The position numbers and the translations under genes are program-made. Shown here piece after piece: positions 2,694-28,341 of a DNA stretch of 64,000 nt. Source of the stretch: an uncultured Planctomycetales bacterium. Its GTDB lineage: Bacteria; Planctomycetota; SBBH01. The DNA is taken from the NCBI GenBank assembly GCA_964455625.1, contig CAYVXZ010000001.1:8150-72149 (forward strand), in the 5' to 3' direction. A model generated the notes under the pieces. The model saw nothing but the letters and a program-made list of their open reading frames with translations. It was not told where the DNA came from and did no database searches. How positions within the stretch are numbered: the first letter of the stretch is position 1; every line of letters begins with the position of its first letter.

Positions 2694-2904
2694 CGGTCCA
2701 TTCTAGCGGTTCCGGGAATCGGGTAAGGGGAATCGAGTCACACTCGGCGTCTCCCGACGCCTCGCGCGACCCCGGGTCGGCCGCCTCTCGGCGTCCTCCC
2801 GTTCGACTCCCATGCTCGCCGCCTCCCGGCGGCTTGACTCGTCGCGCGAAGCGTTGGCCAGGTGCAAGGCACGAGGCACGCCATGGTTCGGCAAGCTCAC
2901 CACG

Positions 2905-2975
2905 AGCGGGTGAGGGGAATCGAACCCCCATGGCCAGCTTGGAAGGCTGGAGCTCTGCCATTGAGCTACACCCGC
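2905..2975 (-). tRNA. tRNA-Gly (anticodon UCC)
   Basis: The reverse complement folds as a cloverleaf. The acceptor stem is GCGGGTG/CACCCGC. The D-arm is GCTCAATGGCAGAGC. The anticodon stem-loop is CCAGC-CTTCCAA-GCTGG. The T-arm is GGTTCGATTCC. The discriminator is U and CCA is not encoded. Confidence 0.9.
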
Positions 2976-11102: not shown

Positions 11103-12183
11103 GGCGACCCGTGGGGAAGCTATCGATCGTCCTTCTGTCGGCATTGCTGGCCGGGATCCTTGCCGCGGGAAAGGGGCCAGCCGCGGCGGAGGGGACCCCG
11201 GCCAATCCCGGGCCCGCGGCGGGCGGGACGGAGGCGCCGAAGGGCCGCTGGGCCGAGGCCCGACGGGACACGCTCCGCCGGTACGCCTCCGCCGTGGGCA
11301 ACTTCCAGGCCCGGCGGACCACCCAGGTCGGCTCGGGGGTATCCGGACGGGTCCTGGAGGTCCTCGTGGACGTGGGGGACGTCGTCCGGGCGGGCCAGGA
11401 GCTGGTGAAGCTCGAGCCGGCACTCTTCGAGATCGAGGTCGCCCAGCGCCGTGCGGACCTTGAGTCGGCCGGGGTCGTCCTGGCGGAGGCGGAACTCAAC
11501 CACACGCGCATGAAGAACCTCTGGGAGAAGCCCGACGGGACCGAGCCCTCCATTCCCCGGAAGCTCTACGACGACGCCCGTTCCCGCCGGGAGGGGGCCC
11601 AGTCCCGCCTTGCGCAATCGAAGGCGGCCCTGGACTGGGCGCTGGAGCGCCTCAAGGAGACCGTGGTGCGCGCGCCCTACGATTCGGTGGTCACCCGCCG
11701 CATGGTCGATCCCGGGGAGCCCGTGACCTCGCCCCCGCTCACGCACCTCCTGGAGATCCAGGAGGTGGGCATCCTCGAATTGGAGTACGCCCTGCCCCAG
11801 GAGATGCTGTCGCGCGTGCGGGAAGGAGCCCCCGTCACGTTCGAGGCGGAGGGGGCTTCCGGCGCGAAAGGCGAGGGAAAGGTCGACATCGTCTACCCGG
11901 TCGTGGACCCCGCCACGCGCTCCTTCCGGTGCCGCACCCTGGTGCAAAACGCCGATCGCTGCTTCCGTCCCGGCATGCTCGCCGCCGTGCGCATCCTGGA
12001 GCTGGAAGCGAAGGATGCGCTCCTGGTTCCCCGCTCTGCCCTGCGACAGGCCGCCTCGGGCTGGCAGGTGCAGGTCCTCTCCGGGAACGCGATCGCGGCG
12101 AGGACGGTCAAGGTGGGCCTGATGACGGACGACCAGGCCGAAGTCCTGGAAGGCCTGGCGCCCGGAGAGAAGGTGGTCCTGCC

Positions 12184-12187
<4 letters not shown>
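11099..12187 (+). CDS. RND efflux membrane fusion protein (HlyD/AcrA family)
   Basis: Signal/TM at the N-terminus. A coiled-coil hairpin plus barrel-sandwich motifs. It is translationally coupled to the flanking genes. Confidence 0.8.
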
Positions 12188-15285
<3,098 letters not shown>

Positions 15286-15784
15286 ACGACCGCTGAGATA
15301 TGCAAGCTTTCAGGTGGTACCAGACATCCTCTTCGCACATGGGAAGTTATTTACGCGTGCCCTGTGAGCGATATTAAATGGAAGAAATTCTATCCACAGT
15401 CCGAATTGCATGGAGGTGGTCCGCCAGAGCTAGTTAAGTTGGACAATACATGCGCCCCCTGATGCCATTCAGCGGCCCTTCCAGCGGTTCGCGTTTGTCG
15501 GGGGACACCAGCCCCTCTTGATTGACGTCCTGCGTCATATTCTGACGCGAACTGACTTTCTGTCGGTCTGACCTGCTCCTACGCTTTCGGAAGGTCTTCC
15601 TGCAAGACGATGCCCTTCCCTGTGTCTTTGGCCCCTCGGGTTGGCTTGATATAGCTGTCCCCTCCCCTCGGACCCCACGGAAATACCTCTCCGTGCAAAG
15701 AACGGGTATCTCGAAGGTACATCGACACCCGCCTGATCGGGTCTGACCGTTTCGGACCCCCTCTCACCCCTTCCAGAAGCAGGT

Positions 15785-16117
15785 ATGTCCCTTGCGGTAT
15801 TACCAGCCATGGCCAAGGTCCGCTCCCTTTTGGGACAGGGGTTCAGGAAGTCCTTTTCGCTGGGCAAGGTCCTGGCGACTCCTGGCGCTCTGCAAGCCCT
15901 GGAGGATTCCGGTCAGGCCGCCATCGAATTCTTACGCAGACATTTGTCTCGCGACTGGGGCGAGGTCGACCCGGAAGATGCGGCCGCCAATGACCGTGGC
16001 TTGATCGAAGGCGGTCGACTGCTGTCAGCCTACAAGACCGCGAAAGGCGTCCGACTATGGGTCATCACTGAAGCCGATCGGTCGGCGACGACCCTACTTC
16101 TACCGGAGGACTACTGA
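15785..16117 (+). CDS. hypothetical protein (110 aa)
   Basis: An ORF in the low-GC cargo segment with no assignable domain. Confidence 0.4.
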   Translation: MSLAVLPAMAKVRSLLGQGFRKSFSLGKVLATPGALQALEDSGQAAIEFLRRHLSRDWGEVDPEDAAANDRGLIEGGRLLSAYKTAKGVRLWVITEADRSATTLLLPEDY

Positions 16118-16269
16118 TGAAATCGGGCGATGCGACAGCGCTGAAAGCGCTCCACGAGATCCTGACCATCCTGGATTCCCATACCTGTCCTGGACCTGAC
16201 GAGGTCGACCAGATTGAGAAGCTCGTCCGGAAGGCGATCTGCTCCATCGATCAGGATGTGAAGTGGTGA
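16117..16269 (+). CDS. small hypothetical protein (50 aa)
   Basis: ATG at 16117 overlaps the preceding stop (TGATG). The ORF is not in the track because it is below 60 aa. Confidence 0.25.
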   Translation: MKSGDATALKALHEILTILDSHTCPGPDEVDQIEKLVRKAICSIDQDVKW

Positions 16270-16571
16270 AGTCATCAATCGAGATGGACAGGTCGGACCT
16301 GGCCACGTTCCTGGGAGCCCTTATTGCCAAACTCCATGCAGACAGCTGGGCTCTGACCGGCCTCGCCGAGTCCCACTTCCAATCAGGCCGGGACTACGAC
16401 GCCATGCACTCATTGGCCGGCTCCATGGGAAAGACGGCCGCCTTAGTGGCCGGGGTAAAGACCCACCTCTGTCGTGACTGCCAGCTCATGGGGATCTCCG
16501 AGCATGTCGTCCTGACCCCAAAAGAGACTGCCCCTCGAAAGCGCCCAAAACACAGGAAGGTCGCCAGATGA
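16263..16571 (+). CDS. hypothetical protein (102 aa)
   Basis: The ORF overlaps the previous stop and has no domain assignment. Confidence 0.35.
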   Translation: MVKSSIEMDRSDLATFLGALIAKLHADSWALTGLAESHFQSGRDYDAMHSLAGSMGKTAALVAGVKTHLCRDCQLMGISEHVVLTPKETAPRKRPKHRKVAR

Positions 16572-16582
16572 GGCTGGAAGGA

Positions 16583-16813
16583 CTACAGCCCTTCAAGGAG
16601 CTGTTTTGGCGGGCATCCCAAGGCCCGAGCCAGGGCAACAATCGTCTTGAGGGAAGGGTTTCGCTCAGCTCGTTCGATCATACCGATGAAGCGCGGATGA
16701 AGCCCTGCTCGATGGGCCAGTTCTTCCTGACTCCAATTTGCATTTTCGCGGTACTGGTAGATCGTCGCTCCGAACGCCTGGACAAGGGGGTCCTTCTTTT
16801 TCCGTGAAGGCAC
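16583..16813 (-). CDS. XRE-family (Cro/CI-type) helix-turn-helix transcriptional regulator
   Basis: 'QAFGATIYQYRENANWSQEELAHRAGLHPRFIGMIERAERNPSLKTIVALARALG' is a canonical HTH_XRE motif. Confidence 0.8.
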   Translation of the reverse strand: MPSRKKKDPLVQAFGATIYQYRENANWSQEELAHRAGLHPRFIGMIERAERNPSLKTIVALARALGCPPKQLLEGL

Positions 16814-16828
16814 ATATGAAAGCTAGAA

Positions 16829-17416
16829 ATGAAATACGATTGTAGACAGGTACAGTTGTATGTATTTACCATCCGGGTGGGAGGGAGAGCCGTTATGAGC
16901 CAGTGTCAGCCCGAACGCAACTTCGTCAGCACCTACCTCCGCCGATGCGAGGCGTACGACTTCATCGTCGAAGACCTCCCGCTCTTTCCGGAGCGCGGCC
17001 TGTGGGACACGATCGACCTGGCTGGATTCGACCTCATGAAGGGCCGCGGGGTCCTCTGCGAGGTCCTCCCCCTCCCACCGGGAAACGTCATCGGAGAACC
17101 TGATCGCCAAACCATCCAGAGGCTCGAAAAGAAGCTGGTCCATGCGTACAGGTTCGTGAGGGAGCGGATGGTGGTCCTGAAGCGGGGCATCCGCTTCCAG
17201 GTCTGGTCCCCCAGTCTTTCCGCTCCACTGAAGAGGGACCTCCAGAGGATTGCTAAGAAGGCTCATCTCCCCGTGGATGTGATCACGGACGAGGCGTATG
17301 CCGCTCGGGTCGATCAACTCCTCAAGAAAGCCAAGCAGGATAGGACGCTTTGGGGCGAGCCTTTCTATCGGCTGATGCGGATCGCTCAACACGCCGGCAA
17401 AAGCATGCGGAGGTGA
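16829..17416 (+). CDS. hypothetical protein
   Basis: An ORF of 195 aa (alternative start at the Met near 16895). It is divergent from the XRE regulator. No domain is recognised. Confidence 0.4.
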   Translation: MKYDCRQVQLYVFTIRVGGRAVMSQCQPERNFVSTYLRRCEAYDFIVEDLPLFPERGLWDTIDLAGFDLMKGRGVLCEVLPLPPGNVIGEPDRQTIQRLEKKLVHAYRFVRERMVVLKRGIRFQVWSPSLSAPLKRDLQRIAKKAHLPVDVITDEAYAARVDQLLKKAKQDRTLWGEPFYRLMRIAQHAGKSMRR

Positions 17417-17425
17417 CATGATCGG

Positions 17426-17758
17426 ATGGTCCTGGAAGGAGAGCACATGCAAAGCAGAATGATGGGGACGGTCTTACTGGCTTTCCTGACAGCAGGTTGC
17501 AACGAGCAGGAAAAGCTTCAGAAAGAAAACGCCTCTCTCGAAACACAAACCCAGAAGCTGGAATCGGAAATCGCGCAGCTCAAGGATATTCCGGGATGGC
17601 ACTTCTATATGGGAGTGGACGCCATGAATCGGAAAGACTGCCAAGTGGCTAAGAACGAATTCGATTGGGTGGTGTCGAAGACCAATGGTTTACTCAAGTC
17701 AGAAGCCAATGACCTCTGGTATGAGTTGGCAAGGCCGGAAGGGGGATCTCAACGATGA
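17426..17758 (+). CDS. lipoprotein with coiled-coil segment
   Basis: Lipobox 'LTAGC' after a hydrophobic signal. A heptad-rich region follows. Confidence 0.5.
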   Translation: MVLEGEHMQSRMMGTVLLAFLTAGCNEQEKLQKENASLETQTQKLESEIAQLKDIPGWHFYMGVDAMNRKDCQVAKNEFDWVVSKTNGLLKSEANDLWYELARPEGGSQR

Positions 17759-18513
17759 AATGCATAGTTGCGGGTGTGGCCCCCCTGATGATGGGGCTTC
17801 TGCTGGTCGGATGCGGTGATGAGAAAGAATTGGACCATCTCAAGGCTCGGAATTCCGAATTGGCAAGCAGGGTATCAGACCTCGAAAAAGAACTCTCAAA
17901 ACTGAAGGAAGCCGAAAGCTTTCAAGGCGCGCTTTTAGCACTCGATCGGCAAGACCATGACGTCGCGCTCATGTATCTCAAAAGTGTTGTCACTAATCAG
18001 AGAAGCCCGCTGGCACCATTCGCGAACCGGTATTTAAAACAAGTTGAATCCACCATTGAGGCAAGGCGTCAGGAGCAAGCGCGAAAAGAAAAGGAGAAAA
18101 AGCGGAGGACACAGGTCCTGGAAATCAATCGTCAATACGAGGCCGCCCTATTGTCCGGCGACAAACAGAAGATTTCCCTGCTGAGACCAAAATGGGAAGC
18201 GTTCCATCCGACTGCGAGAAAGGTCAGTGAAGATTTTGGGCGAGGCAAGGAGAAAGGACAGGCGTGTGCCAGATCCGGCACGGGAAGCCTTGGCCAGATC
18301 GGAGCTTTTCCAAACCACCTAGTGGATAACCTCGTCGACAAGATGTACGACCAAATGTCCGGTGGATTCGGATTTCGTGGAGAATCACAGGATTTTAGGC
18401 TTGGTTGGAAATGCGGTTTTATGGAAGCAAATGGTATCGGCGGTGAACCTTACAGGCGACTTCTGGAAAAGATTGCAGATCGAACCAGTGAAGCAATCAA
18501 GCAAGATGAATAA
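17755..18513 (+). CDS. lipoprotein with coiled-coil and K/E-rich region
   Basis: Signal plus lipobox 'LLLVGCG'. It overlaps the previous stop. Confidence 0.5.
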   Translation: MKCIVAGVAPLMMGLLLVGCGDEKELDHLKARNSELASRVSDLEKELSKLKEAESFQGALLALDRQDHDVALMYLKSVVTNQRSPLAPFANRYLKQVESTIEARRQEQARKEKEKKRRTQVLEINRQYEAALLSGDKQKISLLRPKWEAFHPTARKVSEDFGRGKEKGQACARSGTGSLGQIGAFPNHLVDNLVDKMYDQMSGGFGFRGESQDFRLGWKCGFMEANGIGGEPYRRLLEKIADRTSEAIKQDE

Positions 18514-18518
18514 GCCTG

Positions 18519-19220
18519 ATGCTGGCCGCTGCGTACGACCTGGTCATGATCCTGGACGGGCTGACCCCCGCTGAGAGGGACCTTGGTGGGATCTCCCGTT
18601 CCTTGGCCCGCTTCCTGTCCCAGCGGGGCGTCGACCAGGTATGGGCTCATGCCGGATCGGATGACCCGGAAGAGATCCGAAAGTCGCTACTCGACACTTT
18701 GGAAACCTGCCGGAGAAACGCCGTGGATGGGGAGAGATTTCCAGTCCATTTGGTCTGTCGGAGAAATCAGGAGGGAGTGATTTGCGGGAGTGGCCGTAGG
18801 GCAGGTCTCCTGACCTGGGATGAGCTATCGAAGCGGCTCGAAGTCATCAACCGGGCCATGAATGGCGCCCTCCTCGTCAACATCTCCTCCTGTCGTGGGA
18901 TGCAGGAAGTCGCCTCTTTCCGGCCTCCTCCTCTCAAGAGGCCGTCCTACGCCATGGTGGGGTTTCTGGAATCAGTTCCCGCCGGGGTCAACCGCAGAGC
19001 GAACGAACTCTTCTATGGACAGCTGATAGAGGGCTCGACGGTCCAGGGGGCAGTCAGGACCGTCAACCGGCAGATGGGCAGGAAGATCCTTTATTCGACT
19101 GTCCCGACAGACCGCCGAAAACTGTCCAGGGGCCTCTGGGACCGGCATCCGGGGCTCCGGGTTGCAGGGTCCTCCATATACCCATGCCCAATTTCCGGCC
19201 AGTCCCCGCACGAAAAATAA
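18519..19220 (+). CDS. hypothetical protein, possible caspase/CHAT-like (clan CD) fold
   Basis: A His-Gly segment ('VHLVCRRNQEGVICGSG') is followed by 'LLVNISSCRG', reminiscent of the caspase QACRG catalytic Cys motif. Weak; inference only. Confidence 0.35.
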   Translation: MLAAAYDLVMILDGLTPAERDLGGISRSLARFLSQRGVDQVWAHAGSDDPEEIRKSLLDTLETCRRNAVDGERFPVHLVCRRNQEGVICGSGRRAGLLTWDELSKRLEVINRAMNGALLVNISSCRGMQEVASFRPPPLKRPSYAMVGFLESVPAGVNRRANELFYGQLIEGSTVQGAVRTVNRQMGRKILYSTVPTDRRKLSRGLWDRHPGLRVAGSSIYPCPISGQSPHEK

Positions 19221-19831
19221 AAGATTCTTCTCGCCGCCTATCCAGGGGTAAGTCCCCATCCGATCAGAAATATCTTCCTCTCAAGGTACCCGACGTATTT
19301 CTGGCACCCATGTCTCCAATCGCATCAAATCTCGAATATCCCCTGCCAGTTATTCTGGAAAGTAAACGTGTGGGCATAGCCGCCAGCCGATCACGCAAGA
19401 TGAACTCCAGAACCCGATTCGGACCCATCGAGATCCCCCTCCGATCCATCCTATTGGTCGAGGCGTCAGACGATTCCACGACAGCATGGGTCAAGAATCT
19501 GGCGATCCGGGAAGCCACCAGAGGCAGACGGGTCGTCTGGGTCTCCCTCCGGGAATCCGCCGATGCCCTACAGCCGCTCGCGGAGAAGGGGGTGACCATC
19601 GTCGACATCGGCCGGATCGACGAGGCGACCTTCTTCCAGTTGATCCGGCTCAAAGGGAAGACTGACCGAATCCTCTTCGTAGACGGCCTGGACTTGGTCA
19701 GAGACAAAGGTCAGATAGACCCTGACCTGGCGGTAGAGACAGCCGTGGGGATTCTCATGAACCAGGCCAAGAGATACCCATTCACAGCCGTGGCCACCTA
19801 CCAGCAGGAACCAGCCCTCGATACTATCTGA
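19184..19831 (+). CDS. hypothetical protein, possibly degenerate RecA/KaiC-like fold
   Basis: 'RRVVWVSLRESADAL...ILFVDGLDLV' resembles RecA-superfamily strands without an intact Walker A. Inference. Confidence 0.3.
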   Translation: MPNFRPVPARKIKDSSRRLSRGKSPSDQKYLPLKVPDVFLAPMSPIASNLEYPLPVILESKRVGIAASRSRKMNSRTRFGPIEIPLRSILLVEASDDSTTAWVKNLAIREATRGRRVVWVSLRESADALQPLAEKGVTIVDIGRIDEATFFQLIRLKGKTDRILFVDGLDLVRDKGQIDPDLAVETAVGILMNQAKRYPFTAVATYQQEPALDTI

Positions 19832-19928
19832 CCGTCAAGCGGACCCCTCCCCCTCCGAAAGGGTATCGGGCAACTTCCGATAAGGTTGGTGCCTATCTTG
19901 AAAGAACTGTTATTTTGTCCTGCAGGAC

Positions 19929-21158
19929 TTGGGTGCTTGCAACGAGGAGATGGGTATGACTGAAGCCACGCGCTCATATGGCGACCGTGCGGACCAGGTC
20001 CACCAGTTCTTCGAGAAGAAGCGAGAGTGGTCCAAGATCAAGGACAGGATAGTTGGGTCCTACATTTCCTGTTACCTGAAGACGGTTCAGCATCGTGGTC
20101 GTCCCATCATCATTGTGGATGCCTTTTGCGGCCCTGGGCGTTTCGGCGACGGTAATGATGGATCGCCAGTGATCATTTGTGACACGATCGCCAAGATGAA
20201 CGCCGGCGTTGGCATTGGGTGCTTGTTCGCCGATTCACATCAAAAACATCGTGACGAGCTTGAAGCTTGCCTGGCTGAACACATGAAAACCGGAATTGCA
20301 GGGAAGCCTCTGTCGGATTTCTCAGAGGCTCTTTCACAAGCATTAACAGTAGGTAGAGGCTCAACCTTGTTCTTCTACCTGGACCCATATGGCATCAAAG
20401 ATTTGGATTTCGAGGTCGTGAAACAAATCTACGAGCGGGACACCGCCCAAAGCACTGAGGTTCTGATTAATTTCAATTTCAAAGCCTTCATGAGAATGAG
20501 CGGGAACTGGTCCTACGCTGATTCAGTCGACGAAGTGGCCCGGAAGGTGAAGGAATCGAAAATCGAAAAAGTTAACAGCGTCATGGGCGGCGACTACTGG
20601 TTGGCAATCGTCACCAACCCAGCTCTGAACAAGATTCAGCGAGAAGACGCGGTAGTGGACGCGTATATGGGGCAAGTCAGAAAATACTTCAAGTACACCT
20701 ACTCGATTCCTGTGAAGGAAATGGATGAGGGTGATCGGGACGTTCCGGCTGACGACCTAGCAAAGTATCACCTGATTTTCGGCACGCGCAGTCGCAGAGC
20801 AGTTCTGTACATGAACGATGTGGCCGGCAACGCGTTGGAGCCGTACTTCAAACAGTTCAAAGACGGTCTCCTTTTCGAGATGACTCCGGAAAGGTACGCA
20901 GCAGCCTCGAGGGAGGCAGTGAAGGCTGAAATCCTGAAGGTGCTTGCCAGTGGTCCTATGAAAAGGAAAGAAATCTACGAAGCCGTGGTCCCGGGTTTTT
21001 TTCTGCACTACCGCTCAAAACATTACCGAGCCATGATTGACGAAATGGTCTTCAGTGAGGGACAGCTATTTGCCGATCCAAAGACGATGAAGCGAAAAAA
21101 CCAGCTTAACGAAACGACGCGCCTCGCGACGAAACCTTGGCCAGCTGGCCAGCGCTAA
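19929..21158 (+). CDS. three-Cys-motif partner protein TcmP-like
   Basis: About 400 aa. It lies directly upstream of, and is translationally coupled (TAATG) to, a Gp37/Gp68 three-Cys protein, which is the characteristic TcmP arrangement. Assignment is by context and length. Confidence 0.5.
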   Translation: MGACNEEMGMTEATRSYGDRADQVHQFFEKKREWSKIKDRIVGSYISCYLKTVQHRGRPIIIVDAFCGPGRFGDGNDGSPVIICDTIAKMNAGVGIGCLFADSHQKHRDELEACLAEHMKTGIAGKPLSDFSEALSQALTVGRGSTLFFYLDPYGIKDLDFEVVKQIYERDTAQSTEVLINFNFKAFMRMSGNWSYADSVDEVARKVKESKIEKVNSVMGGDYWLAIVTNPALNKIQREDAVVDAYMGQVRKYFKYTYSIPVKEMDEGDRDVPADDLAKYHLIFGTRSRRAVLYMNDVAGNALEPYFKQFKDGLLFEMTPERYAAASREAVKAEILKVLASGPMKRKEIYEAVVPGFFLHYRSKHYRAMIDEMVFSEGQLFADPKTMKRKNQLNETTRLATKPWPAGQR

Positions 21159-21883
21159 TGAGCGCCACGTCAACCATAGAGTGGACCAACGCAACCTGGA
21201 ATCCGGTCACAGGTTGCACAAAGATCAGTCCTGGGTGCAAGCATTGCTACGCTGAAGTTTTTGCGGAGCGTTGGCGAGGGATCTCCGGGCATCATTTCGA
21301 GCAGGGATTTGACCTCCGGCTTTGGTTTAAGCGGCTAGAGCTCCCGCTTACCTGGAAAACGCCGCGAACCATTTTCGTGAACAGCATGAGCGACCTCCTT
21401 CATGAGAAGGTGCCCACTTCATTTATTCGGAGGGTATTCCAGACCATGGAGCAGGCATCGTGGCACACGTTCCAGGTTCTGACCAAGCGCTCGGAAAGGC
21501 TGGCAGAACTGGCACCAACCCTAGACTGGCCATCCAATGTGTGGATGGGGGTGTCCATTGAAAGCGCTGATTATCTGTGGCGAGCCGATCACCTTCGTGA
21601 AGTGCCTGCTGCGGTGAGATTCTTGTCCTTGGAGCCTTTGCTGGGACCTCTGGGAGTCATAGATCTGACAGACATTGATTGGGTCATCGTGGGCGGGGAG
21701 AGCGGTCCTGGTGCTAGACCTATGGAGGCCGACTGGGTTAGGGACATCAGCAAGCAGTGCCGGAGAGAAAATGTCTCATTCTTCTTTAAGCAGTGGGGCG
21801 GCGTACAAAAGAAGCGGACAGGAAGGACTCTCGATGGGCGTACGTGGGATGGCATGCCAAAGGGTCATCTTCTGGGAGTCTGA
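21158..21883 (+). CDS. phage Gp37/Gp68 family (DUF5131) three-Cys-motif protein
   Basis: N-terminal 'IEWTNATWNPVTGCTKISPGCKHCYAE' carries the C-x6-C-x2-C motif typical of the family. ATG at 21158 overlaps the upstream stop. Confidence 0.7.
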   Translation: MSATSTIEWTNATWNPVTGCTKISPGCKHCYAEVFAERWRGISGHHFEQGFDLRLWFKRLELPLTWKTPRTIFVNSMSDLLHEKVPTSFIRRVFQTMEQASWHTFQVLTKRSERLAELAPTLDWPSNVWMGVSIESADYLWRADHLREVPAAVRFLSLEPLLGPLGVIDLTDIDWVIVGGESGPGARPMEADWVRDISKQCRRENVSFFFKQWGGVQKKRTGRTLDGRTWDGMPKGHLLGV

Positions 21884-21973
21884 CCGGACCCCCCGGAACT
21901 AAACCATTCTTTTCGAAATCCAGCAAAACGTCTGAATGTCCACATCTCCCTTGGGAGCTGATATGGGGAACGT

Positions 21974-23116
21974 TTAAGGTTGCACAGCCAGTTTTAACAT
22001 TTCAGCCATCAACTCCTCTCGAACCAGAGGTTTCCCATTGAGGATTACTTGTCCGAAGGTGTCATTTTCAATTTCTCTCCCAGCACTATCGTAGGCATGG
22101 ACATGAATGCCAATTTCTTGTGGCCGATCCATAGTCCAAACGAATGCTGGGGTGGAAGCCCATATCTCATAGGTACACCCACGCAATTCATCTAAATTTA
22201 ACGATTTGTCGACAAGGATCACCTTCTTGTTTTGAGTGATCACATCGAAAACTCGTTTTAACGGATTACTAACGATGGCCTTCTTGCTCCAATTCGAATC
22301 TCTGCCACAACTAGCACAAAGATGTTTTCTGTGCGGAGCTGCGGCAAAGGCCCCAAGGTCCAAGTGTGGTTCGTTGCAATAGCTGCACATTAGGCAATCG
22401 AGTGGCAACTTCTTCTCCACAGCTTGAACAAATGACCACGCAGCCGGTGGTGTTGCGTTGATCCTCACGGTGGGCTCTTTAGAAAGAAAAAGTGACGGCT
22501 CCTTGAGCGATAACTGGATTGCCTTATAGGTCTTATCAATTATTTTTGTTCCGCCCGCCTTGATTCTTGCGTGCACATGAATTCCAACCTCGCAGCTTGG
22601 CTTCACACGGGTGCTGAGCGCTGTCGGGAGTGAAGCCCAGACGCCAACTCCTCCAGGATAGTCTGCTGGATCAATAATGACCGGGTCGATCACGTAGCTC
22701 AGCGGCATGGTGGCATTCGAGCAAACGATGCGCTGACCAGGTCTCTTTGGAGCTGTAGCTAGATCCGCCTGAGTACCCCAGTAGACTTGGTGTGTACGGC
22801 ACCACATCCGCTCTTTGCCATGTCTGTACTTTCCCGCTGGAATGATCTCGCATGGCAATACGGCATCTTCCCCGGATTTTTCTTTTGGAAAACTACCTAG
22901 TACGTCTTCGGAGTGAACTGCGATATTTCCTATTGTTCTGCCACGAGACCACACGATCGCTCTGCGATGTGCCAGCAAGTCGTCGTTTGGCGGCTGTTCT
23001 TTTCCAAGTATCTGAATGGGGCGAACCACGCCCTTTTTTTGGGCCTTGTCGTAATCCTCCTCAGCAAGCTCCAGGTAGGTACCGTCGAGATGTAGTACGC
23101 GTCTGATGAATGGCAT
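21974..23116 (-). CDS. hypothetical Cys-rich protein with internal duplication
   Basis: An ORF of 380 aa with repeated '(E)(V/I)GIHVHA' modules and a 'CSYC...CASC' cluster. No known domain. It is convergent with the TcmP pair. Confidence 0.45.
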   Translation of the reverse strand: MPFIRRVLHLDGTYLELAEEDYDKAQKKGVVRPIQILGKEQPPNDDLLAHRRAIVWSRGRTIGNIAVHSEDVLGSFPKEKSGEDAVLPCEIIPAGKYRHGKERMWCRTHQVYWGTQADLATAPKRPGQRIVCSNATMPLSYVIDPVIIDPADYPGGVGVWASLPTALSTRVKPSCEVGIHVHARIKAGGTKIIDKTYKAIQLSLKEPSLFLSKEPTVRINATPPAAWSFVQAVEKKLPLDCLMCSYCNEPHLDLGAFAAAPHRKHLCASCGRDSNWSKKAIVSNPLKRVFDVITQNKKVILVDKSLNLDELRGCTYEIWASTPAFVWTMDRPQEIGIHVHAYDSAGREIENDTFGQVILNGKPLVREELMAEMLKLAVQP

Positions 23117-23311
23117 CCAGAAATTCTCCTGGTAGCGTTAGAGCGTTGATTCCGGATTGCGGAAGTGCCTAAGCCCCAGATGGACTGTCATGGGATCATG
23201 CTAGTCGATTCTTAATCTGTTGCCCACCGAGCCGGACAGCGCTGTGTCAACCAGTACCAGAGGACGTCGGGGCCTGTTCCTCAAGGGCACGTGAAGCCCT
23301 CTTCAATTCCA

Positions 23312-23327
23312 GGTTGCACGGTTGCAC
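23312..23327. promoter_or_regulatory. tandem direct repeat GGTTGCAC-GGTTGCAC (candidate antitoxin operator)
   Basis: A perfect 8-bp tandem repeat about 80 bp upstream of the antitoxin start. Confidence 0.35.
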
Positions 23328-23370
23328 ACCGTCCCGTAGAGGTAGGCCCTCCCCCCTCCCCTGACGAAAA

Positions 23371-23399
23371 TTGGCTGGGGCGTTTCCCCATGATAGAAT
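23371..23399 (+). promoter_or_regulatory. sigma70-like promoter (-35 TTGGCT, 17-nt spacer, -10 TAGAAT) for the TA operon; likely leaderless transcript
   Basis: The -10 hexamer ends 7 nt before the ATG at 23406 and no Shine-Dalgarno sequence is visible. Confidence 0.4.
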
Positions 23400-23405
23400 C
23401 CTGCC

Positions 23406-23642
23406 ATGACTACTGCGACGATTGCCCAGGAGGCCGTGCGGCTCATCAAGCATCTGCCTCGTGAGAAGGCGCAGGCTCTTCTGGAATACGCCCGGTACTT
23501 GGTCGAAAGCACCGGCGAGGAGGTCTGGGAGCACAGGCTGAGTGACCCCAGGCATGCCAAGAAGCTGAAGGACTTGGGCGAAAAGGCGCGGAAAGAGTTC
23601 CGCGACGGGAAGACCCGGCCGCTCGACTCCGACAAGATGTGA
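23406..23642 (+). CDS. type II antitoxin (78 aa)
   Basis: A small acidic/basic protein whose stop overlaps the toxin start (ATGA). This is a typical TA pair organisation. Confidence 0.6.
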   Translation: MTTATIAQEAVRLIKHLPREKAQALLEYARYLVESTGEEVWEHRLSDPRHAKKLKDLGEKARKEFRDGKTRPLDSDKM

Positions 23643-23902
23643 TCTCACACGCCTCGGGTTCCTTCCGGAGGCAGCTCCAGACCCTCCAAAAAGATGTTCA
23701 GAAGAGGGCTCGATCAGCCTTCAGGTTGTTCAAGCGGAATCCCCATCACGCCTCCCTGAAGTTCAAGCGCCTCTCGGGCTTGACGGACTACTGGTCTGCC
23801 CGGATCGGCCCTCACTACCGCGCCGTAGCAGTCCGTGAAGGTTCGACCCTGATCTGGTTCTGGATCGGCAGCCACGCCGACTTCGACCGGGATTTCAGGT
23901 AG
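23639..23902 (+). CDS. RelE/ParE-family toxin (type II TA, mRNA interferase-like)
   Basis: 87 aa. 'LKFKRLSG...YWSARIGPHYRAVAV...LIWFWIGSHADF' matches the RelE/ParE plasmid-stabilisation toxin core. Confidence 0.7.
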   Translation: MISHASGSFRRQLQTLQKDVQKRARSAFRLFKRNPHHASLKFKRLSGLTDYWSARIGPHYRAVAVREGSTLIWFWIGSHADFDRDFR

Positions 23903-23914
23903 GGGGGTCGTCTA

Positions 23915-23932
23915 CAAGCCGGCCTACATGCC
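23915..23932. repeat. 18-bp direct repeat 'caagccggcctacatgcc', copy 2
   Basis: Identical to 3069-3086. Confidence 0.6.
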
Positions 23933-24000
23933 AGGCTTTCTGGAAGCTCCGGCAGGCTTTCTCTCCCTCGGGAAACGGCCGGTCTCGGGTCGGAACTGCA

Positions 24001-24044
24001 CCAGCTTGGAAGGCTGGAGCTCTGCCATTGAGCTACACCCGCGA
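24001..24044. repeat. 44-bp direct repeat, copy 2 (5' fragment of tRNA-Gly; putative att site)
   Basis: Perfect identity to 2934-2977. The flanks diverge. Confidence 0.85.
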
Positions 24045-24123: not shown

Positions 24124-25551
24124 ATGGCACGGCTCCTCTTCCTCCAGAACCTCCAGTACGAGTACCTGGGCCCCATGTACATCGCGGCGAGCGTGCGCGC
24201 CCGGGGGCATGGATGCGAGCTCGCCTTCGGCCGGACCACGGAGGATTTCGCGCCGGTCATGGACCGGTTCCGGCCGGACGTGGTGGGCTTTTCGGTCATG
24301 ACGGGAAGCCACCGCTGGGCGGTGGGGGTCGCGCGCGACCTGAAGGCGCGCTACGGCGTCCGGACCCTCGTCGGCGGCGCGCATCCGACCTTCTTTCCCG
24401 ACTTCGTCAACGAGGAGGGGATCGACGGCCTCGTGCGCGGCGAGGGGGAGGAGGCATGCGTCGATCTTCTCGACCGCGTCGACCGGAACGCCGGCTGGGA
24501 AGGGATCGAGAACCTCGTCTGGAAGCGGGACGGCGCGGTCGAGCGGAACGACGTCCGGACGCTGCGGAAGGACCTTGACGATTACCCGTTTCCCGATCGC
24601 CGGCTCTACGATGCCCTCGAGGGACGCGTCGATCGCTCGGTCAGGACGCTCATCACCTCGCGCGGATGCCCCTTCCATTGCTCGTTCTGCTTCGAGGACG
24701 CGATGCGCGACCTCTACGCCGGCAAGGGAAAATACGTCCGGATCCGCCGGATCGAGCCGGTGATCGAGGAATGCCGGGAGCTCCGCGACCGGCACCATGT
24801 GAAAACGATCTACTTCGCTGACGACGTCTTCGGGATGAGCAAGCCGTGGCTCTACGAATTCATGGAGGTCTACCGGCGCGAGGTGGGGCTCCCCTTCATC
24901 TGCCTCGTCCGGGCGGATCTCGTGGCCTCCGACCCCGATTACGCCCGGAACCTGAAGGCAGGCGGATGCAAGTCGGTCTTCTTCGGCGTGGAGTCCGGAA
25001 ACGAGACCCTGCGGAACCGCGTCCTGGTGAAGCAGCTCACCGACGACCAGATCGTGCAGGGGGCGCGCTACCTCCACGAGGCGGGGATCCCGTTCCGGAC
25101 CTACAACATCGTGGGGCTACCGGACGAGACCATGAAGGACGCCTTCTCCACCGTGGAACTGAACATGCGGATCAAGGCGGACTACCCCTGGTGTTCGGTC
25201 TTCGCCCCCTATCCGGGGACGGCGCTCGCGCAGTACGCCCAGCAGCGCGGGTACCTCCCGCCGTCCTTCGACGTCGAGGAGATCGCCGGATCCTTCTTCA
25301 CCTCCTCCAACCTTGAAGGAGAGAACATCCGGGAAAAGCAGAACCTCCAGAAGTTCTTCCAGACCGCCGTCCGGTGGCCCTGGACCTGGCCGGTCATCAA
25401 GCGGCTGATCAGGCTTCCCTCCAACCGGCTTTTCGACGCCTGGTTCGGATGGGTCTATTTCCTCACGTACCTGAAAAGCGAGCAGAAATCGTTCTGGAAG
25501 ACGCTTCCGTTCGCCCTGCGGAACTGGCGCCACATCTTCGCCAAGGAGTGA
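24124..25551 (+). CDS. B12-binding domain-containing radical SAM protein (class B rSAM)
   Basis: The N-terminal Rossmann-like B12-binding region ('VVGFSVMTGSH...') is followed by the rSAM cluster motif 'CPFHCSFC'. Confidence 0.8.
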   Translation: MARLLFLQNLQYEYLGPMYIAASVRARGHGCELAFGRTTEDFAPVMDRFRPDVVGFSVMTGSHRWAVGVARDLKARYGVRTLVGGAHPTFFPDFVNEEGIDGLVRGEGEEACVDLLDRVDRNAGWEGIENLVWKRDGAVERNDVRTLRKDLDDYPFPDRRLYDALEGRVDRSVRTLITSRGCPFHCSFCFEDAMRDLYAGKGKYVRIRRIEPVIEECRELRDRHHVKTIYFADDVFGMSKPWLYEFMEVYRREVGLPFICLVRADLVASDPDYARNLKAGGCKSVFFGVESGNETLRNRVLVKQLTDDQIVQGARYLHEAGIPFRTYNIVGLPDETMKDAFSTVELNMRIKADYPWCSVFAPYPGTALAQYAQQRGYLPPSFDVEEIAGSFFTSSNLEGENIREKQNLQKFFQTAVRWPWTWPVIKRLIRLPSNRLFDAWFGWVYFLTYLKSEQKSFWKTLPFALRNWRHIFAKE

Positions 25552-26414
25552 GCGCCCCCGACCTGGATGCCGCCTGCCGCGCCTGCGGCGGCGGGTCGTT
25601 CCCCGTCCGGACGTTCGACCGCGACGGCGGCGTCCTCCTGCGGCGGTGCGCCGCCTGCCGCTCCGAATTCCTCCATCCCCAGCCGCCGGACGGGCGCCTC
25701 GCCGCCGAGTACGCCGACTACGGCGTGCGGCGGAAGGGAACCGCGCCCGGCGGGAAGACCCCGTACTTCAGGGATCTCCTCGCCGCGCTCGGCCTTCCGG
25801 CCGGCATCGGTTCGATCGCGGACCTCGGCGCCGCCGAGGGGGACGCCCTGCGCGCCGCGCGGGAGATCTGGCCCGGCGCACGACGCCTCGCCGTCGAGCC
25901 GCGCCCCGAAGGTCTCACGGGAACGGACTGCGAAACCGCCCGGACGTCCGTCGAGGAATGGCTCGCGGCGCCATCCGGCGAACGCTTCGACCTGGTCCTG
26001 GCCCTTGACGTCCTCGAGCACCTGCGGGACCCCGGCGAGGCCGTCACGCGTCTCGCGCGCGACCGGATCGCCCCGGGCGGGTTCCTCGTCGCCACCTTCC
26101 CGAACGGGACGTCGCTCTCCCGGCGCTGGATGGGACGTCTCTGGGTCCAGTGGCGGATCGAACACCTGCATTACCTCTCGGCCGCGGGCGTCCTGGCCCT
26201 GGCGCGGAACGCGTCGCTCGACACCGGTTTTCTCGCGCCCCACACGAAGCGGCTCCCGGTCTCCTATCTCCTGGCAGTGGGAAGCCGGTTCGGGCCGGCG
26301 CCGGTCCGTCCCCTGGTCCGCTTCCTCGCGCGGACGACGCCGGGACTCCTCGCCCGCCGCTCCGTCGGCCTTCCGCTCGGGGAATGGATCTGGGTCGCCC
26401 GGAGGCGCGCGTGA
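25546..26414 (+). CDS. class I SAM-dependent methyltransferase with N-terminal Cys4 zinc-ribbon
   Basis: GTG at 25546 overlaps the upstream stop. 'CRACGGG...CAACRS' is a zinc ribbon. 'IADLGAAEGD' is SAM-binding motif I. 'LVLALDVLEHLRDP' is motif II. Confidence 0.7.
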
Positions 26415-27079
26415 CCGGCGGGCGCCCCGAGTCGGCCGCCGCCTGGAGCGCCCTCTACGCGGCGGGGTACGAGGGCTCTCCCCTGCCAGCACTGCTCCTT
26501 GCCCTGCCCGTCCCTCCGGGCACGCGCGTCCTCGACATCGGATGCGGCCAGGGACGGCACATGACGCGCTGGGAGGGCCGCGCTGTCGGAATCGATTTCT
26601 CCATGACCGCGCTCGCAGATGCCGACGCGCGGGGACAGCGCGCCGCCTGCGCCCACGCCGGGCGGCTCCCGTTCCGCCCTGGCAGCTTCGGCCTTGCCTA
26701 CTCCCTGGGGGTGATCGAGCACCTGGCCGACACCGAGGGCGCGATCCGCGAATCCTTCACGGTCCTCGCCCCCGGCGGCTGGGCGTACCACTCGGTCCCC
26801 CACACGCGCTCCGTCTGGACCTGGTGCGTGCGCCCGCTCAAGAAAGCCCTCGGGAAGTTCCCGATCGGACGCGAGGCCTCCTTTTCCGTCCGGCGCATGC
26901 GGCGGATGTTCGAGGCGGCCGGCTTCACCGACATCGCGCACCGCGTGATGCCGTTCGCCGCCTACGACTGCCTCGGCGCGCGATGGCCCCTTCCGCTTCT
27001 CTACCGTGCCGAGGATTTCCTGAACGCCCGATTCGGGAACGTCGGCTTCTTCCTGCACATGTGGGGCCGGAAGCCTTAG
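26411..27079 (+). CDS. class I SAM-dependent methyltransferase (type 11-like)
   Basis: GTG at 26411 overlaps the upstream stop. 'RVLDIGCGQGRH' is motif I. 'GLAYSLGVIEHLAD' is motif II. Confidence 0.7.
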   Translation: MTGGRPESAAAWSALYAAGYEGSPLPALLLALPVPPGTRVLDIGCGQGRHMTRWEGRAVGIDFSMTALADADARGQRAACAHAGRLPFRPGSFGLAYSLGVIEHLADTEGAIRESFTVLAPGGWAYHSVPHTRSVWTWCVRPLKKALGKFPIGREASFSVRRMRRMFEAAGFTDIAHRVMPFAAYDCLGARWPLPLLYRAEDFLNARFGNVGFFLHMWGRKP

Positions 27080-28269
27080 CGGGGAGCCGTTGTCGATTCC
27101 GAAAGCATCTGCGATGCCGCCGAAAACGCCTCCTCCGGCCCGATCTCTTTCATGCAGATATTGTTCCCGTTGCAGGCGGCGATCTTCGCGCTGTAGGTGT
27201 TGAGGCACGGGCTGCAGAACACTCCCCTGTACAGGACACGGTGGCCAGGTTCCAGGGGACCGTACAGGGCCGGCGTCTCCGGGCCGAAGAGCGACAGCGT
27301 CCGTGCACCCGAGGCGATCGCGATCTGCAACGGACCGCTGTCGTTGGTGACCACGAGATCCATCCGGCGGAAGAGCCCCGTAAGCTCCTCGACCGTCAGG
27401 CGCCCCGCGGCGTCCACGGCGCGGACGGACGCCGGCAGCTCCCGCGCGAACGCCTCCACATAGTCCCGGTCGACACCGCCGCCAACCAGGAAAAACGTCC
27501 CGCCGCGCGCCGCCTGGAGCCGTTCCATGAGGACCCGGAAATGCGGGGCGGGCCAGCGCCGCTCCCAGGAAAGCTCGCTCACGTTGATGTTGACGGCGAT
27601 CCAGGGGCGCGGCCGGTCCGCGCCCGGCTCCCCGGCGAAACGCGCGGCCGCGGCATCCGCCGCGGCGCCGGGAACGAGCGCGCGGAGCGACAGGTCCGCG
27701 ACGATGATCCCCAGCGGGCGCAGGAGGTGTCCGTAGATCTCGCGGATGTGGCGCCGCGTGTTGTAGGGGACGGAGGCGGTCACCAGGCTCTCGAACCAGA
27801 AGGCCGGATGGAAGAATCCGATCCGCCGCGCCGCGCCGGAAAGGTACGCGATCACCACCGTGTAGCGGGCGTAGAACTCGAGATTCAGCACGGTGTCGAA
27901 CCGCTCGCGGCGGATGCGGATCAGGGCGCGCAGGGTCGAAAGGAGAAAGCGCCCGATTCCCCCGACGTCGATCCCGATCACGTCGTCGATCTCCGGGATC
28001 AGTCGGCAGACGGCGCGGTTGGCGGCGAAGGTAAGGAAGACGATCCGGACGCCGGGGCGTTCGCGCTTCAAGGCCAGGACCGCGGGGGTCGTGTTGACGA
28101 GGCTCCCCATCCCGAAGCACTTGATGAAGAGGACCCGCCGGACAGGCGGCGCCGCGCGCGCCGGCAGGAGCCGCGCGAGGAACGCGCGGGCCCTTTCCCA
28201 CAGGAAAAGCGCCACGCAGAACGGGGGGCCCAGGATCTTGTCGGCCCGCACCAGCGCGCGCGTTCTCAT
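27076..28269 (-). CDS. glycosyltransferase family 9 (ADP-heptose:LPS heptosyltransferase-like)
   Basis: 'RVLFIKCFGMGSLVNTTPAVLALK' at the N-terminus. 'GGGVDRDYVEAFA' and 'VVTNDSGPLQIAIASGARTLSLFGP' are GT9 signatures. Confidence 0.8.
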   Translation of the reverse strand: MRTRALVRADKILGPPFCVALFLWERARAFLARLLPARAAPPVRRVLFIKCFGMGSLVNTTPAVLALKRERPGVRIVFLTFAANRAVCRLIPEIDDVIGIDVGGIGRFLLSTLRALIRIRRERFDTVLNLEFYARYTVVIAYLSGAARRIGFFHPAFWFESLVTASVPYNTRRHIREIYGHLLRPLGIIVADLSLRALVPGAAADAAAARFAGEPGADRPRPWIAVNINVSELSWERRWPAPHFRVLMERLQAARGGTFFLVGGGVDRDYVEAFARELPASVRAVDAAGRLTVEELTGLFRRMDLVVTNDSGPLQIAIASGARTLSLFGPETPALYGPLEPGHRVLYRGVFCSPCLNTYSAKIAACNGNNICMKEIGPEEAFSAASQMLSESTTAPR

Positions 28270-28341
28270 GGATCGGCCACAGCATAGCAGCCCGCGCGAA
28301 ATTGTGGGGTGCGCGGGGCGCGGCTATGATCGCGTATCCCC

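Follow-up and report, generated by a model that had tools for sequence, protein, structure and literature searches.

Three adjacent genes in a 64,000-nucleotide stretch of DNA from an uncultured Planctomycetales bacterium (GenBank assembly GCA_964455625.1, contig CAYVXZ010000001.1, positions 8,150 to 72,149 of the forward strand; the whole stretch is called the window here, and positions are counted from its first letter) raise the question of whether they form one system and what they would do. [quoted passage not shown] A preliminary description, made from the sequence alone, had grouped all three as a candidate DNA-modification or defence module. Our preferred reading, to which we assign a probability of about 0.6, is that a decayed genomic island, which abuts a truncated tRNA-Gly, holds two unrelated elements next to each other: a two-enzyme, S-adenosylmethionine (SAM)-dependent module that would modify nucleic-acid bases in the service of genetic conflict, and an unrelated, probably metal-binding accessory protein. 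TcmP and DUF5131 would act jointly on a nucleic-acid base, combining a methyltransferase-type substrate pocket with radical chemistry, and they might label DNA or RNA as self or provide a second line of defence linked to restriction-modification (RM) systems; it is this substrate, this chemistry and this antiviral role that we infer.

The family membership, fold, conserved motifs, conserved pairing and genomic company of the pair were established as described below. Its features in the window are:

19956..21158, + strand: TcmP (three-Cys-motif partner protein), 400 aa, predicted class I SAM-methyltransferase fold with a C-terminal helical domain
20118..20138, + strand: TcmP motif I, the SAM-binding glycine loop DAFCGPG; D55, F57, G59, P60 and G61 invariant in 29 homologues
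20376..20393, + strand: TcmP motif IV-like segment YLDPYG; Y141, L142, D143, P144 and G146 invariant in the 29 homologues
21158..21883, + strand: DUF5131 (phage Gp37/Gp68 family), 241 aa, radical SAM superfamily, coupled to TcmP through TAATG
21215..21247, + strand: three-Cys motif CTKISPGCKHC (Cx6Cx2C) of DUF5131, presumed [4Fe-4S] ligands C20, C27 and C30
21692..21706, + strand: GGESG, a GGE-type motif of DUF5131; G179-G183 invariant in a 10-sequence alignment

The mechanical list of open reading frames (ORFs) gives the three genes as 19929-21158(+), 21137-21883(+) and 21974-23116(-). The first of these ORFs matches the NCBIfam model TIGR04474 with 116.5 bits (cutoff 53) over profile positions 1-259 of 263, and the identification as TcmP, made beforehand from size and gene order, is thus borne out. 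Its length, which had been put at 409 aa, probably needs correction. Translation is likely to start at ATG 19956, giving 400 aa, and not at TTG 19929 of the mechanical ORF, because the ATG sits 6 nt past a GAGGAG, homologues are 396-402 aa long, and the gene call on the contigs of the Logan assemblies in which the locus is identical is also of 400 aa. The translational coupling that had been described stands: the stop codon of TcmP and the ATG of DUF5131 at 21158 overlap as TAATG at 21156-21160.

An AlphaFold2 model of TcmP made with the 29 homologues (mean predicted local distance difference test score, pLDDT, 85.5) predicts a Rossmann-like class I methyltransferase fold and a C-terminal helical domain of ~100 residues. 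The modelled TcmP has an RlmJ-like methyltransferase fold, in which the SAM loop is intact and motif IV is shortened. The closest known systems for it are RlmJ, the Escherichia coli 23S rRNA m6A2030 methyltransferase, and its relative LPL1258 (PDB 2oo3), at a sequence similarity that is not significant. Searches of PDB chains with each of the three proteins, by single sequence and by profile, gave nothing usable, the RlmJ relationship of TcmP being invisible to sequence searches, and hhalign of the TcmP profile with E. coli RlmJ aligned motif I alone (DTHAGAG) at a non-significant probability of 2%. By eye, three segments can be paired (RlmJ first): DTHAGAGRY with DAFCGPGRF, GSPLI with GSPVI, and IDPPYE with LDPYGI, the TcmP residues being invariant in the family. 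The proteins also differ: RlmJ has a helical insertion and DPPY, whereas TcmP lacks the insertion, has DPYG, adds the C-terminal domain of ~100 aa, and always has a radical-SAM-type partner. Distant phage homologues of TcmP are labelled 'methyltransferase' by SEA-PHAGES annotators, and a scan of IMG/VR viral contigs returned no member of the present TcmP subfamily.

The identity of the second gene, proposed from its C-x6-C-x2-C motif, is likewise upheld. DUF5131 matches Pfam PF07505 with 337.5 bits (gathering score 28.9) over profile positions 2-243 of 243, and the phage family phrog_2045 of PHROG with 324 bits. In the alignment of 10 DUF5131 sequences, which are 43-81% identical to this protein, C20, C27 and C30 are invariant, as is GGESG, which we take to be the SAM-binding-site motif familiar from radical SAM enzymes. 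The match to TIGR04471 ('radical SAM mobile pair protein A') reaches 82 bits, under the cutoff of 355, and judged by its sequence DUF5131 is related to that family and is not a member of it. With TIGR04471 and spore photoproduct lyase it has in common an N-terminal three-Cys motif, a GGE-type motif and an occurrence in mobile gene pairs; the Cx6Cx2C spacing of its cysteines is different from the CX3CX2C canonical for radical SAM enzymes. RadicalSAM.org places DUF5131 in the radical SAM superfamily, in Megacluster-5-2, and spore photoproduct lyase in Megacluster-5-3 (PMC9477430).

The pairing of the two genes was surveyed across 80 metagenomic loci with a DUF5131 that shares 57-81% identity with the window copy (fetched loci carry L-numbers below). 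TcmP was detected in 55 of the 80 by tblastn and in 62 by clustering, and it is upstream on the same strand, as in the window, in 42. Nothing sets the window copy apart from other TIGR04474/PF07505 pairs: both proteins score above the curated cutoffs, and the genes are adjacent, co-directional and coupled, with the Cx6Cx2C motif present. A different arrangement was seen in Sphingobium sp. D43FB (L048, 13212-16122), where one DUF5131 gene is followed by two tandem TcmP paralogues of 420 and 346 aa, each of which exceeds the TIGR04474 cutoff. The kind of pair seen here is already catalogued in PADLOC-DB among the 'phage defence candidates'. With the PADLOC hidden Markov models (HMMs), DUF5131 scores 379 bits against PDC-M41B and 364 bits against PDC-M30B, and TcmP 64 bits against PDC-M30A (N-terminal half; profile positions 8-210 of 372) and 26 bits against PDC-M41A. 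The likeness to these two-gene A/B systems thus lies in the common layout and in the B component, which matches almost end to end; the A component of the window is divergent, its 64 bits covering part of the PDC-M30A profile. In the literature searched, PDC-M30 and PDC-M41 figure only as computational predictions, PDC-M30 in surveys of Pseudomonas aeruginosa strains, and no experimental trial of their protection against phage turned up; full-text searches returned no functional study of DUF5131, PF07505, Gp37Gp68, TcmP or PDC-M30/M41, in agreement with the earlier statement that the biochemistry of the pair is not established. The window pair is a member of a named, uncharacterised kind.

The company that the pair keeps elsewhere is, as we read it, that of a conflict gene. 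Its recurrent neighbours are RM genes, namely HsdM, HsdS, HsdR, a type III-like Res helicase and a large N6_N4 methyltransferase, all confirmed with Pfam, and RM genes lie within 8 kb of the pair in 7 of the 35 loci that are at least 8 kb long. In three loci, L121 (1107-8740), L139 (1875-11409) and L151 (1420-11520), the pair is inside co-directional Res-...-TcmP-DUF5131-Mod operons; in L153 (1336-5617) it is directly upstream of Mod on a contig with no Res; and L174 (1789-11624) reads HsdS-TcmP-DUF5131-x-HsdR. Gene boundaries in these RM operons are tight or overlapping. PrrC sits within hsd operons, and the tight spacing of the pair between RM subunit genes of other genomes is similar, an analogy of placement only: the pair has no sequence or fold relationship to PrrC, and the window has no RM genes. 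When close TcmP homologues on long contigs were considered, two of three adjoin N6_N4_Mtase genes (L086 and L090), the first of them together with AIPR and ResIII.

Phage genomes and one bacterial defence locus add to this. In Gordonia phage Angelique (MH651167.1; L176, 2020-5299), TcmP is gp43 (125 bits) and DUF5131 is gp42 (342 bits). The TcmP gene, annotated 'methyltransferase', directly follows and overlaps the end of gp44, the annotated immunity repressor; gp42, annotated 'hypothetical protein', is convergent with gp43, and both genes lie between integrase and repressor. The matching phage records number 13, comprising 12 Gordonia phage records (some of them duplicates of one phage) and one unannotated faecal phage contig. 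In a list, ordered by gene number, of the genes up-regulated in the nolR+ strain of Sinorhizobium meliloti, SMa2243, a TcmP gene, comes directly after SMa2245, the gene for the defence protein Hna (PMC12445080). The PADLOC matches (PDC-M41B, PDC-M30B and PDC-M30A) together with the RM, phage-immunity and hna neighbours substantiate the view of the pair as a defence candidate.

The radical SAM affiliation also bears on another explanation, that the pair serves neither defence nor modification but the repair or maintenance of mobile elements. DUF5131 might, for instance, repair DNA photoproducts or other lesions by radical SAM chemistry, much as spore photoproduct lyase does, and TcmP would be the partner that binds DNA and handles SAM. 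The megacluster shared with spore photoproduct lyase fits this (PMC9477430), as do LexA genes near the pair in 3 of the 80 loci and the phage-borne membership of the family in phrog_2045. An orthologue at another locus, L022, matches the UV damage endonuclease UvsE weakly (E = 8e-5), at 21.7 bits far under the cutoff of 456. Insertion in RM operons and placement by a temperate phage's annotated immunity repressor are typical of conflict genes and not of repair genes, and a lyase would not be expected to have a methyltransferase-fold partner. We consider a repair function quite improbable.

The gene for C380 requires a description of its own:

21974..23116, - strand: C380, Cys/His-rich, 380 aa, from a widespread family that lacks annotation; gene convergent with that of DUF5131, 90 bp lying between them
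22982..23116, - strand: N-terminal beta-meander domain (residues 1-45), with strands predicted at residues 2-9, 12-23 and 28-40
22451..22876, - strand: module 1 (residues 81-222), C89, C106, H109, C132, then W160..P164..IH180VH182
21977..22450, - strand: module 2 (residues 223-380), C244xxC247..H251..H262xxH265xC267xxC270, then W..STPA..IH338VH340

The two repeated GIHVHA modules and the CxxC cluster that had been pointed out are real. GIHVHA occurs at residues 178 and 336, and the cluster comprises cysteines 241, 244, 247, 267 and 270. When the N-terminal and C-terminal halves of a 28-sequence alignment were compared with hhalign, a match over 83 columns was obtained (probability 96.9%, E = 1.9e-10), so the two modules are a true duplication and not a chance likeness. 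The 28 sequences, from cyanobacteria and proteobacteria, have a mean column identity of 58%, and the invariant Cys and His residues among them are C89, C106, H109, C132, H180, H182, C244, C247, H251, H262, H265, C267, C270, H338 and H340. The AlphaFold2 model, a confident one (pLDDT 85.4; predicted template modelling score 0.83), suggests an N-terminal beta domain followed by the two modules, each consisting of a Cys/His zinc-ribbon-like cluster and then a beta domain with an I-H-V-H strand at its end. Whole-chain searches with predicted models returned no fold match among solved structures, and the protein has no match in Pfam, NCBIfam, PADLOC, PHROGs or PDB sequences; the preliminary description had recognised no match either. 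Generic CxxC zinc ribbons are the nearest descriptors, there being no known family, and C380 resembles them in having two CxxC pairs with histidines between. An HNH-like or deaminase-like assignment of the Cys/His cluster was rejected, as by eye both the spacing and the predicted secondary structure misfit. The N terminus of C380 may bring to mind those of IS1634-type transposases.

The C380 family is large. A word-indexed search found more than 930 homologues, and an exhaustive one gave 490 clusters at 50% identity, with most members ~377 aa long. Shorter variants lack the first ~88 residues, match profile positions 89-374 and carry a third zinc-ribbon-like unit, and one member is fused to a C-terminal MUG113/T5orf172 domain. 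No member was found in IMG/VR viral contigs or in 50,697 phage records, and one was found among 72,556 plasmids; the idea of C380 as a phage or plasmid gene was dropped on these counts.

Whether C380 belongs with the pair was asked of 80 species-level C380 loci. TcmP and DUF5131 lie within 5 kb of C380 in 6 of them (TIGR04474 scores of 132-216 bits, and HMMs built here). In L044, L055 and L071 (the last from Pseudomonas sp. MWU13-2105, beside tRNA-Pro) all three genes run in one direction as DUF5131-TcmP-C380, the gaps being 8, 27 and 121 bp; L022 repeats the convergent layout of the window with a 9-bp gap; and L048 and L049 are arranged differently. In a seventh locus, L033, a 75-aa fragment of DUF5131 (12217-12438) remains 1.1 kb downstream of C380. 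By our own rough estimate, which assumes at most ~0.3 DUF5131 genes per genome, ~0.03-0.6 loci with the pair beside C380 would be expected by chance, and on that estimate the observed association is far above chance. Integrases, found beside C380 in 7 loci, are about as frequent as the pair.

These loci are the case for taking the three genes as one system, in which the pair would make or read a nucleic-acid modification and C380 would be a third component, be it effector, sensor or specificity factor. The three co-directional sets, the repeat of the window layout and the retained fragment speak for it, and so does the variety among the six cases: a neighbour-joining tree puts their C380 proteins in six or more distinct places, their TcmP proteins range from 305 to 420 aa, and the gene order varies, which is the usual signature of functional coupling and not of shared descent. 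Other observations argue the opposite. C380 was absent from all 80 DUF5131 loci and from those retrieved for three close homologues of TcmP, 74 of the 80 C380 loci are without the pair, many of them standing alone in core genome regions, and in the window itself the convergent genes are not co-transcribed. The closest relative of C380 (59% identity; L091, 197-3026) is also without the pair, and lies beside a PemK toxin-antitoxin (TA) pair and an ordinary class I methyltransferase gene, near an integrase. The layout of L091 resembles that of the window with other families in place, a divergent PemK TA pair (not ParE) being on one side and a convergent Methyltransf_11/25 gene where the window has DUF5131 and TcmP. 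A single three-gene system is, on balance, unlikely, although by no means negligible. The three-gene module of the preliminary description is thus weakly supported: TcmP is confirmed by its HMM match and some conserved association with C380 exists, but this association is facultative. We conclude that C380 is a floating gene found in conflict islands, where TcmP/DUF5131 is one of several partners that it can have, and that its adjacency to the pair in the window is a lineage-specific local juxtaposition and not an inherited three-gene unit.

The alternative partners are recurrent. A helix-turn-helix (HTH)-ImmA/IrrE regulator lies 0-170 bp upstream of C380 in L028 and L065, and in L033 and L078 one gene, an ORF like nucleoside monophosphate (NMP) kinases or like PIN proteins, stands between the two. 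Four alphaproteobacterial loci have a co-directional array of an Nmad2-like gene, HTH-ImmA/IrrE (Peptidase_M78), a PIN-like gene of 166 aa, DUF6378 and C380, at the following coordinates:

L046: 7216-10969
L057: 7214-10969
L068: 7341-11026
L074: 7296-10963

On Azospirillum plasmid p3 (L175, 7968-11297), the genes after a C380 variant encode a true Nmad2-domain protein and ImmA/IrrE. P-loop genes resembling NMP kinases abut C380 in L033 (9402-9995) and L049 (11050-11628), one of the genes being guanylate-kinase-like (80 bits) and one adenylate-kinase-like (56 bits), both below the cutoffs. The literature searched held no functional study of Nmad2 or DUF6378. In cyanobacteria C380 stands alone.

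Under the preferred reading of two separate things, C380 would be an accessory or cargo gene of conflict islands that is sometimes found with TcmP/DUF5131 and more often behind HTH-ImmA/IrrE switches together with DUF6378, Nmad2 and NMP kinases, and a metal-dependent role in binding nucleic acids or nucleotides seems to us the most likely one for it. A bolder proposal, which we offer tentatively and would not expect to hold, is that C380 represents a new family of metal-dependent (Zn/His) enzymes or sensors that act on modified nucleotides or nucleic acids, and that it is the exchangeable output module of several nucleotide-centred conflict systems, including DUF5131-TcmP-C380 and ImmA/IrrE-gated ones with DUF6378, Nmad2 or NMP-kinase genes.

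Several points weigh against the preferred reading. The motif IV of TcmP, LDPYG, is one residue shorter than DPPY and departs from the (D/N)PP(Y/F) form expected of class I enzymes, which makes the catalytic competence of TcmP as an amino-methyltransferase uncertain, and the likeness to RlmJ is not significant in sequence (2% in hhalign; no PDB HMM match). DUF5131 has Cx6Cx2C and not the canonical CX3CX2C. The link to RM systems is borrowed from other loci, there being none of their genes next to the pair in the window, and we found no experiment or paper that gives an activity for TcmP, DUF5131 or the C380 family. With regard to C380, the gene is inherited vertically in Nostocaceae after asd-dapA-rnj, among housekeeping genes, which argues against a purely conflict-related or toxic role. 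Some of its neighbours have weak labels: the Nmad2 match in L074 reaches 17 bits, which is below cutoff, and the PIN-like assignment is weak as well. The lack of a known fold is a result of predicted models and whole-chain searches only.

TcmP/DUF5131 is a common pair in phages, prophages and defence islands that has been named by annotation pipelines and left unexplained. The fold of TcmP, the insertion in RM operons of type I and type III-like kinds and the repressor neighbour in Gordonia phage lead to a testable hypothesis, namely that SAM-dependent chemistry on nucleic-acid bases serves defence. The C380 family is the most original material of the locus, followed by the RlmJ-like fold of TcmP and the insertion of the pair in RM operons. 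C380 is well conserved across ~490 clusters from cyanobacteria to proteobacteria, with no annotation or recognizable fold, and its recurring neighbours (TcmP/DUF5131, ImmA/IrrE, DUF6378, Nmad2 and NMP kinases) give a starting point for working out what it does. Should either hypothesis, that on the pair or that on C380, be true, a new enzymatic theme in bacterial immunity or nucleic-acid modification would follow; if neither is, the genes are ordinary island cargo.

The island that holds the three genes has these features:

15300..23970, no strand: low-GC genomic island, GC content 0.55 against 0.66 and 0.70 in the flanks
23406..23902, + strand: type II TA-like pair divergent from C380, made up of a 78-aa ORF (23406-23642) and a ParE-like toxin gene (23639-23902)
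23974..24042, - strand: truncated tRNA-Gly(TCC) copy at the right island edge (Rfam RF00005, 32.8 bits; no call by ARAGORN)

The low-GC island next to a TA pair was correctly recognized beforehand. By gene, the GC content is 0.51 for TcmP, 0.55 for DUF5131 and 0.50 for C380. The toxin matches PF24732 ParE_like with 51.2 bits (cutoff 24.4); the 78-aa ORF, the putative antitoxin, overlaps it by 4 nt, in the layout of ParE/RelE-type type II pairs, and has no match in the family libraries. The first ~44 nt of the tRNA copy, through the anticodon arm, are identical to the intact tRNA-Gly(TCC) at 2904-2975(-), and the sequence is unrelated afterwards. Island DNA starts directly 3' of this copy. Family scans found no integrase in 15300-23970, repeat and att searches found no flanking direct or att-like repeat, and direct repeats of the 3' part of the tRNA, sought as island boundaries, were not found.

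An island of this kind, without integrase or att repeats, abutting a truncated tRNA and with most of its other ORFs lacking homologues outside the organism's own assemblies, may be decaying, and the module might then be inert cargo that is intact by chance or through recent arrival, with no functional link or benefit to the host. The state of the genes speaks otherwise: each of the three proteins has the full length of its family and all of the invariant residues, TcmP and DUF5131 are still coupled through TAATG, and three independent SRA assemblies (Logan assembly contigs) contain the locus in identical form. Inert cargo is therefore a very improbable explanation.

Upstream of TcmP, 15785-19831 holds nine co-directional ORFs (110, 50, 102, 195, 110, 252, 233 and 215 aa among them), which have no match in any family library and homologues only in assemblies of the same organism. 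Two of the ORFs, 17426-17758 and 17755-18513, resemble coiled-coil lipoproteins. The only family match among the other ORFs upstream of TcmP is an XRE-type HTH gene on the opposite strand, 16583-16813(-). The 215-aa and 233-aa ORFs and further genes of the island were considered as travelling companions of the pair and dropped, as none accompanies it elsewhere.

Beyond the left edge of the island, a 1109-aa antisense ORF, 11893-15222(-), shadows an RND-type transporter gene, 11929-15285(+); it is the usual artefact of DNA with 70% GC and no gene. Long overlapping ORFs are also present at 25455-28287. The first gene of the high-GC right flank, 24124-25551(+), reads in translation like a B12-binding radical SAM enzyme containing CPFHCSFC, and appears to head a cluster with methyltransferase-like and glycosyltransferase-like ORFs.

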